From Okamejei kenojei (Eukaryota), in the NCBI GenBank assembly GCA_035221665.1, contig CM069149.1, positions 19,964,001 to 20,028,000 on the forward strand: a stretch of DNA of 64,000 nucleotides. Reading direction: 5' to 3'. The notes under the pieces are model-generated. The model saw only the letters and a program-made list of their open reading frames with translations. It ran no database searches and had not been told where the DNA came from. Position 1 is the stretch's first letter. The number at the start of each line of letters is the position of its first letter. Position numbers and translations under genes: made by a program. Below are positions 6,927 to 55,248 of the stretch, one piece after another.

Positions 6927-7003
6927 GTGCTGGAGTAACTCAACAGGACAGGCAGCATCTCTGGAGAGAAGGAATGGGTGCGGTCAAGATCTTTCTTCAA
7001 ACT
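6927..7003 (-). repeat. Penelope pseudo-LTR-derived repeat (degenerate core)
   Basis: GCTGGAGTAACTCAACAGGACAGGCAGCATCTCTGGAGAGAAGGAATGGGTG family signature. Confidence 0.8.
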
Positions 7004-8111
7004 CATTTACTTTTTTTTTAAGATTATTTGGATAGCTGTGGAGTGAGAGGAGGGCTGTACGTTCAGATGGGGTGAAGTTAGAGTAGGTAGAGTAATTGGA
7101 AAAGTTGAGACTGTTTATGTCACTCCGGCAGTTCAAAATATATAAAAGGTCTAGAGGGTAGAAGGCTGCCCGGTGGAATCCAAGAGGGAGACTGGTGGAG
7201 CATCTGAAGTTCCTTCCTACACAAGGTTGGGGAGTGTTGGTGATGAGGGAGGCCGTTTGCTCACCATGAAACCAGAACCGTGTCTACAAATTGCGCAGTG
7301 GTCAGTTCTATTAATTATTTCAAAGACAGGTGCACCCACATCTAGGTTGATGGTATGAATTTGTTTAACCCAAGTGTTCGCTCACTCACTACCTGACACA
7401 GAACCAATCTGGCAGCCAGACTCAACATCACCACTGAGTGAGTTGACTATTATACCACTTGGTAATGGATGTTGATGTCTTCCACCCAGGGTGCACCTTG
7501 TACATGCGCTACTTTCAAAGGATTGAATATGTTGCACAACCAGAGTACCAATTCATCAATTGAAAATATTATTTGGCAAATAAGGAGCATTTTCGTACCA
7601 TGTTTAACCCAGAGCCATGAGACATCATGAGGTCTGGATTAAATGTTGAAAACTTCCAGATCCCTTCAATTTGGAAGTCCTGCCAAGGCAGGTGGAACAT
7701 ACCCAGGAATTGGAATGGAGGACTCTGACATGTTGTCTACATGCTATGATTTTGCAAGTGTGACGATGCCAGAATGTTACTTGTGGGACAGCTCACAATC
7801 ACCCCCCAGATGTTTGAGGGAGACTCTGCCTGGTTGATTATGATTGAACTTGGTGCCCGGATCCATGCGGAATAGCCAATTAATATTATTTTTGTGGGCA
7901 TGAGATGACTTTTTATTCATCACATTGCCATCTATGCCTTTGAGAGCTTAAAAATTAACATTAATAAACCCAGAATATAATAATTTTGACTGGTTTAGTT
8001 GGCAACCTGGACTGTTACGTTTACAGACTAACAAGAACCAGAGCATGCATGCACGTTAACTTTGAAAATGAAGGGATTTTCCCAGGCAGATTTTTTTTCC
8101 CCAAAACTCAC

Positions 8112-8270
8112 CATCACTTCCTCTGTGTTGAAGCAAATATCCATTCATAGAACCTGTCATAAGCTGATGGTGACTTCCAGCTTCGGATCGCCCATAGCCT
8201 TCCTGATGATCTGACAGTGTTCCCTGGGATGACAAGTAGCTTGAGATATCTGCAGGCAAGTTAGTCTCAT
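8112..8270 (-). CDS. LRIG3: LRIG3 exon 16 (juxtamembrane cytoplasmic)
   Basis: 159 nt, CAG/GTGAGT; ETNLPADISSYLSSQGTLSDHQEGY, containing the LRIG SYLSSQGTL motif. Confidence 0.94.
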
Positions 8271-10010
8271 CTGAGAAACAACAAGAACAGCTTTAACATC
8301 TGGTCAAATTATTACTTCATAACTAAAATAGCATATTAAGTTACTCAAATAAAATCCCTTAAAGTTGCTTTAGTTCCTCTCAGAACACCAAAAAGTTTCA
8401 TTTTGCAAAATTTTGCCAATTTCTGAACAGAGGTTACTTTGTACATCCATTTCTGATTTACTGTTCACAATTTTAATTTCTGTAGTCCTACTTTTGCACT
8501 AACGTTGCTAATTAACTTTGAAAAATATTCTTAACATTTTAAAATTGACACAAGTCTATAACTAATTAAACATTTTGTTTCAGTTAAAGAAGATATTACA
8601 CATTCAAGATCCAGTGTTCACTGCACAACTTGTCTACATTATGCCGCACCAAACTCTGGATACACAAGGTCCCAGGGGCAAAGTGCGAGCACCTGTCTTA
8701 GGTTAGTTAAGCTCAGAGGAGAACCATAGGGACAACATAAAGCCTTCAGGACTCTAGTCATAAGAGTTGGTGATAATGTTTGGGAGTGGGTTGTTGTTTA
8801 TTCCACATCATCGCAATTGAACAGGAGTCACAAATCAAAAGTAGGACCACATAGACAGTACCTTTTCACATAGCCTAACAAAAGAGGTGGTCACAGCTAT
8901 CAAGTGTGGGGGAAAAAAGGATTTAAAAAAAAGCAAAAGATGAAGACTCCAGTGATACATTAGAGAAAAGCAAACTACTATATAATTTTAATTGAAAATG
9001 TTCATAAAAATTTCAATTTCAAAACCCCAAAGTAAATATTTCTCAGACACAAGTGTCTGCAGTTGCTGCAAACTTGAGCAAAAAAGATTGGAGGAACTCA
9101 ATGGGAGAAGTAACTGTGAAGGCAGACATTTGGGGTCATGACATCTTCTTCCAAATCTATCTTTTACAATAATAAAGTGTGCTTTAAAGCGACAATTATG
9201 CCAAATGAATCAATATACCTTTATCTCAAGAAGAAATGCAGAAGTGTTTGTTTTTAAAATGCTACAGTGAGTCAAACTGAAAATGAGAATATAGGTGCAA
9301 GTGATGAATTAACCACCCTGGGAGAAGTTTTTAGGGTGGGAGGGGGGAGGATTCTAACGAAAGGAAACAAAACATTAATAGGAAAAAATATACCAGTTCC
9401 CTCGATAGCTCAGCAATATAATCCAGCAAATAGTTAAGGTATACGTGTCAAAATCTTAGCTTGATCGCTGAGCCATGCTAGCTTTAATGATTTCAGTAGG
9501 AATAACAAGGGAACACAACCAGTCCTTGGATACTTAAGAGGGGTACAGATCAGCTCGGATTCTCATTTTCAACTGTTGACTAGTGGCTCATTAAATATTC
9601 ATGTCTGAGCTTGAAATTAAGACGCAACTAAATCAGATTGTAATACTTCCTGCAGTTGAACAACATGACAGTACTTAAATGTCAGACCCCTGTAATAAAC
9701 AATCACTTTGCCTTTCGTAGCCATGTAATCACACAAGCTGAAGGCACATTTTACCTTCAATATAAAAACATGCATTGGCTGCACAGTAATGAGGATTAAA
9801 TAACATATAAAAATAATGTATTTAAAAATCGCAAAGACCAATATTTTAAGTTAAACCAAAAAATATTTGCTCTATTTTCTAATGGTACAAAATTATATCA
9901 TATCTGGGCAGGAGGAAGAAGAGCAGAAAACCGTTAAAAAATAATTTAAAATTGCGTAGTGCGTTATTCTCATTTCTATCTCTTAACAGTTTTATGTTTA
10001 AATTTCACAC

Positions 10011-10460
10011 CTGTGTTTGTCACGCTGCAGTCCTCACTCTTCCTTCTTGTGTGGTAAATAATTACTACCCAAACCAAAGATGTGCCAACCACACAACAGA
10101 CCACTGCTATGATTACAATTCCAATGGTAGACCATCCATCCTCTTCAAATGGTGTAGCACTTTGTGCAGAGTCACAGTTTGGGGTAGGTAGGACATTAAG
10201 ACGAATGTGTCCCCGCTCAGTTCCAAGGGTATTCGACATTTCACACGTGTACTTCCCAGCATCATCCAGGTTGCTGTCTACAATAATCAACAGTTGATTT
10301 CCAGCAGCAAAGAAGTGTCTTTCAGTTACTGATAAAGGACTATCGTCCTTTGTCCAGTTCAGTTTTGGCGGTGGACTCCCAGCTGCTATGCACTGTAGAA
10401 CTGCAGTTTCACCTTTCGCCACCGTTTTGTCGACAAGAGGACGCACAAATGAAGGTGTTT
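10011..10460 (-). CDS. LRIG3: LRIG3 exon 15 (Ig domain 3 + transmembrane helix)
   Basis: 450 nt, [32 protein letters not shown]...[42 protein letters not shown]. Confidence 0.97.
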
Positions 10461-53488: not shown

Positions 53489-54619
53489 ACCTATCCATAT
53501 TCTCCAGAGATGCTGCCTGACCCACTGAGTTACTCCAGTACTTTGTATCCTCCGTGGTGTTCATTCACAAAACATACTCGTTTTACTGGTGCCTTGCATC
53601 TTTACGTGTCTCTTTGCACGTTTGTTAGCTCTGGATTGTTCAATGTTACGATTTATTTTCCTCGTCCTCTTTGATGCTGCAACTGGTTGTGGAACTGTAC
53701 CCATTAAGAGTTAGCACCTTCAAGTGGTGCAGAGGAAATTAGAAATTAAAAGCCAATCATCACAAATGATTCATGTTTGAGTTACAATTTGCACCTTCTT
53801 GATAGGATGCGAGAAATAAAACAAACATTTGCTCTCTTATAAGATTGCATAATATGTAGAAACAAGAGGTGCAAGGTAAAGCAAATATATGTCTGTTTTA
53901 CTTTCGCATATATTCTCATAAGTAAACAACTTTGTATTTGCTTTTTCTCTTAACCATACACGTTTTATTCAGAAACCTCAATAATTGTTCAAAGTTCGCA
54001 TTTCATGTCTGTTTTGCAATGCGGTTTATGTGGATTTGCGATCTGTTATGCTTTACTAACAATTAATTCATGAATAATTAATGTGTCCTTGCTACAGTAC
54101 AAACGCACTACGAAAAAAAATCAGCACATTTTTTTTCTCAGACATTACGTTTCTAATTGTTTTGAACATTGTATCCCTGCCTCTCGCCTCCCACCGTGTC
54201 TCAGTTGGTAATGGAAACATGCCGTTGAGAAAACATTGAACAAAATGTCCAACTGTGTTCATGGTCTGCTGAGTTTCCTCGGCGGGGTTCTACATTTAAC
54301 TTTGGAGTTCCCGGGTTAGAGTAATGAAAATCCTTCGCCTCCTGGGTGACTTCCATACTAGGGAGTGCTAATAACAGCTGAAGATGAGATCGGCCTGAAG
54401 ATGATTTCCATTCACCCTGCCCCCACCAATTCGCACATCGCACCACCAGACGCTCCATCACCCCCAAGTTAAAATATCTTTCTCTTTTCGAAGTGGTTTC
54501 GAGGGGTCACGCATGCCTTACTTTCAAACCCGTTCCGAGACCAGTGTGGGATGCACGGATTCTATAGTAGGTAGAACAGGAAATATTTATAGAGTTATAA
54601 GAAAACAAACTGGTGGAGG

Positions 54620-55020
54620 ACGAAACAAAGTGCTAGAGTAGCTCCGCGGGTCAGGCAGCATCCCAGGAGAACATGGATTGGTGAAATTTCGATGGGAACG
54701 CTTCTTCCGACTGATTTTAGGGGAGAGAGAGATAGCAGGGAGAGGTGGTGGGGGGCGGGGGGGGGGGGGGGGGGGGGGGGGTGCAGGTTAAAGCCTGGCA
54801 GGGAATAGGTTGATACAGATGCAGAGGGTTTTTGATAGGCAGGTGGTTGGACAAAGGCCAGATACGAAAAGACAGGTGTGAGGCAAAAGGATTAAAGAAT
54901 TGCGAAGCTAAAGGAAGAGAGAGGGGGGAGGGGAGGAAGAAATAGGTGCGACCACAGGGGGGCTGACGGAGAGGGTACATGGGGAAGAGGGGGAGGGTTT
55001 TTGTAGTTACCTAAAATTGG
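54620..55020 (-). mobile_element. Penelope-like element 3' region and pLTR (degenerate)
   Basis: Family signature at 54624-54715 followed by the purine-rich 3' region and TTACCTAAAATTGG end of ORF. Confidence 0.7.
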
Positions 55021-55042
55021 AACATTTAAAGATGGAAATAAA

Positions 55043-55248
55043 TGGAGGAACTCAGTGGGTCAGACAGCATCTGTGATGGACAGACGAGATCAGGTCAGAA
55101 CCTTTCTCATGTCTATCTGAAGAAGGGTCCTGTCCTGAAACGCTGCTTGTCCATTTGCTCCCCAGATGCTACCTGACCTGCTGTGTTCCTCCAGCACTTT
55201 GCTTTTTATTCAATAATCCAACATTGCATCTGCATTCTCTTGTGTTTC
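55043..55248. repeat. Inverted pair of older-subfamily pLTR repeats
   Basis: TGGAGGAACTCAG...CAGCATCTG and CTGAAGAAGGGTCCTGTCCTGAAACGC...CAGATGCT...GTTCCTCCA. Confidence 0.75.

Follow-up and report, generated by a model that had tools for sequence, protein, structure and literature searches.

Why does a 64,000-nucleotide stretch of the Okamejei kenojei genome (contig CM069149.1, positions 19,964,001 to 20,028,000; hereafter the window) carry a short, hammerhead-related repeat 25 times over, and why do so many copies begin at or just before the ribozyme core? The original prediction assigned the repeats to the pseudo-long terminal repeats (pLTRs) of Penelope-like elements (PLEs), and left a choice between extreme 5' truncations and a retrozyme-like, nonautonomous family. 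They turn out to be terminal repeats of a high-copy Neptune-type PLE, each a pLTR that may or may not have a tail of ~35 nt. As to how they were made, the best overall explanation, to which we give a probability of roughly 0.8, is copying of uncut RNA by the element's own reverse transcriptase (RT), with two internal starts and a frequent stop before the hammerhead core. A single repeat unit is called an arm below, and its positions are numbered with the C of the CUGA box as +1, which places the predicted cut between +28 and +29.

Abundance of the Repeat

Arms were located with a profile made from seven window copies. It gave 25 arms for the window itself and none for 10 shuffled windows. Every repeat coordinate listed earlier was recovered, along with two further arms at 9050-9151 and 53489-53557. 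How typical is the window? A 1.264-Mb sample, made up of 120 10-kb tiles (20 next to the window, 100 at round coordinates on 29 contigs) and the window itself, contains 572 arms, or 0.45 arms/kb. The density in the window is 0.39/kb, so the window is typical of the genome. Extrapolated to the assembly size of 2.76 Gb, the total comes to ~1.2 million arms. The 53-nt core of the young copies alone occurs 21,213 times in exact form, in keeping with the recent mobility that had been proposed.

Ends of the Short Copies

Counted genome-wide as exact matches, the young core becomes rarer as the query is lengthened upstream, from 25,316 (+6) to 21,213 (+1), 12,374 (-5), 10,751 (-10), and 10,198 (-15). 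The successive losses are 16%, 42%, 13%, and 5%, and the last, over -11 to -15, is about what mutation alone costs. The 42% lost over -1 to -5 bears out the earlier claim that starts just before the core are nonrandom. Overall, 5' ends peak at -4 to +1. When the first 92 exact core matches on one contig (C1) were examined individually, 39 had 5' ends at +1 to -9 (29 of them at -1 to -4), 6 at -14 to -40, and 47 more than 60 nt upstream. Among 39 young arms of the tile sample, 13 stop at -8 to -1 and none at +28 to +31. Across all subfamilies, 190 of 271 arms that bear the CUGA box stop before the core and 81 continue into native untranslated region (UTR), the two classes being set by our own rule of pyrimidine content and similarity.

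Is the ribozyme cut used to make these copies? Only 6 of 420 arms start at the cut site (+28 to +31), no excess over the neighboring positions. Uncut RNA is therefore the source of the short copies, as it is for the anole element described below, and a part for cleavage in producing them finds no support. The short (39) and long (47) young copies carry the same diagnostic variants, so the short copies, or stubs, are products of the full element.

That the stubs are insertions in their own right is seen from their target-site duplications (TSDs). At least five copies without an open reading frame (ORF) had been credited with TSDs; seven such window units have exact TSDs of 9 to 14 bp (20661, 26393, the 32100 pair, 39506, 40609, the 45214 pair, and 52690), although the window search was made without its own null. 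For the 1.26-Mb sample an expectation is available: TSDs of at least 9 bp flank 36 of 247 solo arms, where 2.8 are expected. TSDs of the copies overall range from 9 to 16 bp, and in several copies the TSD directly adjoins the core.

At the other end, 58 of the 92 young copies terminate at +90 to +95 and 28 at +124 to +132. The difference between the two classes is the optional PLE tail, located in the anole element between two RT start sites (PMC11167929). The same two classes recur in pairs of arms. Neighbors among 752 arms in 1.46 Mb are arranged head to head 134 times, tail to tail 17 times, and on the same strand 26 times; in the window, the sites that had been listed as double (32100-32307, 45214-45368, 46867-47091, and 55027-55242) are head-to-head inverted pairs, with no tandem pair among them. 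From 70 well-scoring head-to-head pairs, 15 were left out for an intermediate end; of the 55 that could be classed, 45 join a tailed to a tail-less arm (27.5 expected; P = 1e-6). TSDs of at least 9 bp frame 18 of 67 pairs, against 0.7 expected. Given this composition and these framing TSDs, each head-to-head pair is one insertion. Inverted pLTRs with one tail are already known (PMC3846280), and the anole PLE protein extends both target strands in vitro (PMC11167929). One further locus (L233) has a 27-nt filler between TSD and element that is an antisense piece from beyond the tail and the ORF start; its template extended past the tail.

The Full-Length Element

What stands behind the stubs? 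A search of the genome with the endonuclease frame at 53492-53169, and with the N-terminal 100 residues, yielded long copies. The proposed pLTR identity of the repeat is supported. The full-length elements are partial tandems, with RT, a C-x4-C-x2-C linker, a C-terminal GIY-YIG domain, and an ATG at +163, and their open frames reach 1197 aa. In one 785-aa single frame (L071), matches to RVT_1 (E = 2.6e-6) and GIY-YIG (E = 3.3e-3) both lie slightly below the Pfam cut-offs. The C-x4-C-x2-C motif stands between RT and endonuclease in its translation and fits the CX2-5CxxC linker common to Neptune and Nematis (PMC8557442). Locus L073 illustrates the partial tandem: a truncated upstream copy, pLTR, and tail, followed by the ATG at +163. 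More than 100 nt of truncated upstream copy precedes 20 of 30 full-length copies. Within the window, GIY-YIG frames do lie upstream of two units, at 53492-53169 (-) and, frameshifted, at 39034-39300 (+). A pyrimidine-rich UTR of ~220 nt and ~95 nt, respectively, lies between frame and ribozyme core.

In all of this the family resembles the endonuclease-bearing PLEs of Neptune type, for which an RT with C-terminal GIY-YIG, the CX2-5CxxC linker, partial tandems, heavy 5' truncation, inverted 5' copies, and a tail of 30 to 40 bp at one end are described (PMC8557442). The optional 30- to 40-bp tail, inverted 5' copies, and TSDs are all present here. It differs in the extreme abundance of stubs (the extrapolated ~1.2 million arms) and in its 5' stop zone at the ribozyme edge, of which we met no description in the sections of that account consulted.

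Two groups of copies are of separate interest. In one (L171-L200), 10 of the 20 partial copies upstream of full-length elements end at -320 to -523, inside the endonuclease region, perhaps at a second start region or because they share masters. The other (L051-L060) comprises 10 young copies with a 106-codon frame and an in-frame TGA in common and with scattered 5' ends, which suggests a defective master copied in trans; the scattered ends rule out a nonautonomous element of fixed length. A link of the repeat to Eulor hairpin repeats found no support.

Anatomy of the Ribozyme

The family consensus is a minimal type I hammerhead, as had been proposed, but the motif is not intact in each unit: only 3 of the 25 window arms (26487, 46964, and 52949) have a whole core. 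A descriptor scan blind to the family gave 85 matches in 1.46 Mb and 0, 0, and 1 in shuffles, the matches being members of one family and not independent of each other. Helix I has 2 bp in 60 of the 85, in agreement with the ~2 bp noted before for young copies, and 3 to 4 bp in 7; it falls short of the 4 to 5 bp expected of PLE minimal hammerheads. The 4-bp helix I attributed to the old copy at 38108 is not usable, since the core of that copy is broken (damaged CUGA box, AAAAT for GAAAC, and ATC for GTC).

Eleven cluster consensuses were compared. CUGANGA, GAAA, NUH, the extra base after A9, the G10.1-C11.1 pair, and the palindromic 15.2-16.2 are invariant or compatible in most of them. The CUGA box is kept in all eleven and the triplet is GUC or GUU in eight, while three low-quality or old clusters have changes resembling CpG decay. 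Besides the GUC/GUU switch of the triplet, the changes are one-sided ones in helix II that preserve wobble pairs. The covariation check that had been suggested for helices I and II thus turned up no two-sided change among these consensuses, and blocks outside the ribozyme are as constant as the ribozyme itself. Nor did the suggested Rfam search match any hammerhead family at E up to 10; the Rfam matches that do occur, at 45260-45350, merely reflect a perfect hairpin there. The predicted fold of the free RNA differs from the hammerhead, with helix II below 1%. A predicted pairing of the core with the end of the tail in the young family was set aside because the tail bases differ in older subfamilies. 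RNA-type assembled contigs from two data sets have coverage that parallels DNA and lack usable ends; they show neither expression of the element nor cleavage.

By its anatomy, then, the motif is like a PLE minimal hammerhead, with self-cleavage a prediction. Metazoan PLE minimal type I hammerheads share these core boxes, an additional base between 9 and 10.1, the G10.1-C11.1 pair, and the palindromic 15.2-16.2, and they too occur mostly as single motifs in truncated copies (PMC4209133). For Drosophila virilis Penelope, the same source describes a helix I of 2 bp, at the 5' side of which an intron ends. Helix II and helix I have 5 and 2 bp here versus 7 to 8 and 4 to 5 bp in the Schistosoma consensus (PMC4209133), and no two-sided covariation was found in this family. 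Published PLE hammerheads are described as weak or protein dependent (PMC4209133, PMC11167929), and among frog dimers one of nine was cleaved (bioRxiv 10.64898/2026.07.22.740005).

A Model for the Stubs

How might one element yield all of these forms? The element's RT would carry out target-primed synthesis on uncut RNA from two internal starts, marked by the 3' ends at +90 to +95 and +124 to +132, and the cDNA would often end just before the hammerhead core. In the head-to-head pairs, two cDNAs, primed at the two starts on both target strands, would be joined at their 3' ends. Much of this has a precedent in vitro: for the Anolis Poseidon element PAc, two internal RT starts bound the tail, both target strands are extended, uncleaved RNA serves as template, and no reads end at the cut site (PMC11167929). 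The PAc ORF starts inside the ribozyme, in contrast to the ATG at +163 here, and 5' stops at the ribozyme are not reported in the consulted parts of that paper. Adineta Penelope elements likewise have head-to-head pLTRs with TSDs of 8 to 10 bp and a tail on one arm, an initiator-like motif in the pLTR, and solo pLTRs (PMC3846280). They are of low copy number, and their inversions are explained there by self-priming on an antisense template, whereas the tailed-plus-tail-less rule found here fits two separate primings. In the stubs the ribozyme is a passenger. Any role for cleavage would lie in the full-element RNA and would need a partner or a protein.

What sets the stop? The motif YCAGU is kept in all subfamilies, although the pyrimidine-rich UTR upstream of it is unrelated between them. 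YCAGU resembles both the initiator and the splice acceptor consensus. Many template RNAs may begin at it, which would give the stop; we hold this at slightly less than an even chance. In its favor, the base in front of the apparent end is G in 16 of 29 arms ending at -2 (8.7 expected) and in 13 of 27 ending at -3 (7.4 expected), or 29 of 56 combined against 16.1, and one locus (L237) has a TSD, one extra G, and then a start at -3. PLE promoters have been located in the pLTR (PMC2377424, PMC3846280).

Several observations weigh against this account. Stops are spread over a broad zone (+5 to -9) that has its mode at -1 and lacks a sharp edge at -3. Of 75 truncated arms, 43 have the C at -4 following AGT, which is above chance. 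Taken alone, solo arms give a G excess short of significance (P = 0.08 and 0.16), at -4 and -5 there is no excess, and inverted arms are inherently G-rich. Only one of the 21 full-length copies extending to +1 of the upstream repeat stops at -9 to +1, so that the second-pass stop rate of 1/21 contrasts with 39/92 on the first pass (P = 0.0007); 3 more of 30 stop at +3 to +5. Because second-pass stops are this rare, most long templates start far upstream. Lastly, a pyrimidine tract followed by YAG also has the look of a splice acceptor, and the placement of the element with Neptune, made by motifs, is provisional.

Could the stop instead be a block in copying, on templates of the same origin, rather than the RNA start? 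The RT may be anchored on the folded hammerhead, which would act as a template boundary, or splicing or pyrimidine-tract factors may sit at the tract and YAG, with release once the core has been copied. Telomerase, a relative of the PLE RT, has such a boundary. A block would suit the breadth of the stop zone, centered on -1 with shoulders on both sides, the far weaker stop on a second pass through the same sequence, and the 50-nt pyrimidine tract ending in CAG or TAG that unrelated UTRs keep. RTs, on the other hand, usually pause on the 3' side of a structure, the predicted free RNA hardly forms helix II, and the G excess before -2 and -3 better fits a cap. Two published points, the D. virilis Penelope intron that ends at the 5' strand of the 2-bp helix I (PMC4209133) and the requirement of the anole ribozyme for the PLE protein (PMC11167929), again favor a block, which we regard as a tentative but credible contender. 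It is improbable that the CAG is a splice acceptor actually in use, with short copies from spliced or back-spliced RNA, a ~160-nt exon running from -1 to a donor-like site before the ATG, and helix I perhaps remodeled by splicing. The mode of starts (-1) would be the first exon base, and 30 of 30 full-length copies have a donor-like AAG/GTATGC ahead of the ATG. This conservation means little, as the 30 copies are one young family; moreover, no such junction occurs in 1.82 Mb of DNA rich in these copies or among the joints listed from the RNA-type contigs, and where solo copies are preceded by fillers, these are short and of local origin. A helix I lengthened by splicing was also rejected, because the only donor-like site (+160) adds no pair and leaves helix I at 2 bp. 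A stop at a branch point was likewise dropped: CUGAC/CUAAC sits 0 to 5 nt from YAG depending on subfamily, and the stop zone does not shift with it.

Two further explanations are much less likely. Short units could form an independent nonautonomous family, like a retrozyme or short interspersed element, propagated from short masters of its own through ribozyme-cut or circular RNA. Their very high copy number, own TSDs, and fairly fixed ends would agree with this, and the retrozymes of animals, which are derived from PLE pLTRs, are present in one sampled chondrichthyan (bioRxiv 10.64898/2026.07.22.740005). Those non-long terminal repeat retrozymes are similarly noncoding, hammerhead-bearing, related to PLE pLTRs, and often monomeric, but their definition calls for head-to-tail tandems in which two or more units have whole ribozymes. 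No such tandem of one family was found in the 1.46-Mb sample, though arrays may exist elsewhere in the genome; head-to-head neighbors (134) far outnumber same-strand ones (26), and only four same-strand pairs have both core starts, each joining two different subfamilies. Short and long copies have their variants in common, with no lineage apart from the autonomous element, and copies end away from the cut site and are not permuted around it. The retrozyme-like family that had been considered is therefore very improbable. Least tenable is plain random 5' truncation, with the start at the core as an alignment effect. Ends upstream of -60 are indeed scattered, and the profile begins at -5 and could bias counts based on it. 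The exact counts, which use no profile, nevertheless lose 42% over -1 to -5 against 5% over -11 to -15, several TSDs directly adjoin the core, and the 92 individually examined copies have unrelated flanks. Random 5' ends were among the conditions named in advance for refuting the original prediction; the ends cluster before the CUGA box.

A more ambitious version of the favored reading, which we think rather unlikely, makes the stubs the Penelope counterpart of strong-stop DNA, with the hammerhead fold marking the 5' boundary of the template rather than cutting it and the hairpins of a tailed and a tail-less arm recording a dimeric RT that primes both target strands simultaneously. If true, about a million run-off products would lie in this genome, mapping in vivo the two RT starts, the stop, and the joining step in the transposition of PLEs, and their minimal hammerhead would serve a noncatalytic purpose.

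Significance

As a ribozyme find the locus is ordinary, minimal hammerheads in PLE terminal repeats having been published. For the element type and the motif, and also for the tail, the inversions, and the solo ends, published descriptions exist. The family and its stop at the ribozyme edge were not found in the literature, a search that left aside repeat databases and the species supplements of PMC4209133 and bioRxiv 10.64898/2026.07.22.740005, which may cover cartilaginous fish. The value lies in the footprint: tens of thousands of near-identical young insertions, copied from uncut RNA, with two fixed starts, a stop at the ribozyme edge, and one start paired with the other. It bears on the origin of PLE tails, inversions, and short copies, and on the function of the weak PLE ribozymes. 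Because intact long frames exist, the model is testable in vitro.

Features of the Window

Arms and element fragments are collected in Table 1. The arm at 52813, counted earlier as a unit, is real but is not a whole, separate one: it and the 53489 arm are halves of one older arm, interrupted by the young 52854-53492 insertion. This insertion of a young PLE into an older arm of its own family, in opposite orientation and with a 10-bp TSD (52813-53557), is a possible case of self-targeting.

Table 1. Repeat arms and related PLE features of the window
Feature	Position	Strand	Remarks
Old arm, damaged core	6927..7003	-	
Very old arm	9050..9151	-	E = 7e-6; absent from the original prediction
Young solo arm, start -3, helix II damaged	20661..20755	+	11-bp TSD
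Old arm with tail, damaged core	22847..22973	-	
Young solo arm, start -5, whole core, no tail	26393..26489	-	11-bp TSD
Head-to-head pair, tailed and tail-less arm	32100..32307	.	13-bp duplicated flank
Old arm with tail, damaged core	38076..38189	-	
Older PLE 3' fragment: frameshifted GIY-YIG piece, UTR, partial pLTR, damaged core	39034..39458	+	
Solo arm with tail, start inside helix II	39506..39622	-	9-bp TSD
Arm with tail, start inside helix II	40024..40134	-	
Solo arm with tail, damaged core	40609..40727	+	9-bp TSD
Arm, start +18	42914..42993	+	within local duplication
Young head-to-head pair, tailed and tail-less arm, no core	45214..45368	.	14-bp TSD
Head-to-head pair	46867..47091	.	+ arm (46964) has whole core and tail
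Arm without tail, start inside helix II	48379..48465	+	
Solo arm without tail, CUG missing	52690..52788	-	14-bp TSD
Older arm, 5' half, split by young insertion	52813..52853	+	
Young 5'-truncated Neptune-type PLE insertion (GIY-YIG fragment, 3' UTR, tail-less pLTR)	52854..53492	-	nested in older arm; 10-bp TSD
Whole minimal hammerhead core, CUGA box to cut triplet	52918..52945	-	pyrimidine tract and CAG before core
C-terminal GIY-YIG endonuclease fragment	53169..53492	-	one in-frame stop; PF01541 E = 1.7e-4, 22.2 bits, cut-off 22.6
Older arm, 3' half, partner of 52813..52853	53489..53557	+	
Old arm, native pyrimidine-rich upstream, damaged core	54618..54713	-	
Old head-to-head pair, damaged cores	55027..55242	.	

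A decayed GIY-YIG-like fragment (48547-48661, +; tblastn E = 1e-4) lies shortly downstream of the 48379 arm. The window also contains sequences of other kinds. Exons of an immunoglobulin-domain membrane protein, presumably LRIG-like, are found at 9976-11796 (-; I-set E = 2e-19), and several arms may be located in introns of this gene. A 529-aa open RT frame of a long interspersed element (LINE), which we take to be of CR1 type, occupies 55506-57098 (-; RVT_1 E = 7e-34), with related fragments at 16600, 29050, 12570, and 51270. An unrelated repeat with a 41-nt tandem unit is present in two copies of opposite orientation, at 34869-35200 and 42203-42410. Finally, a GC-rich island with long frames on both strands at 51380-52450 is possibly a promoter and first exon.

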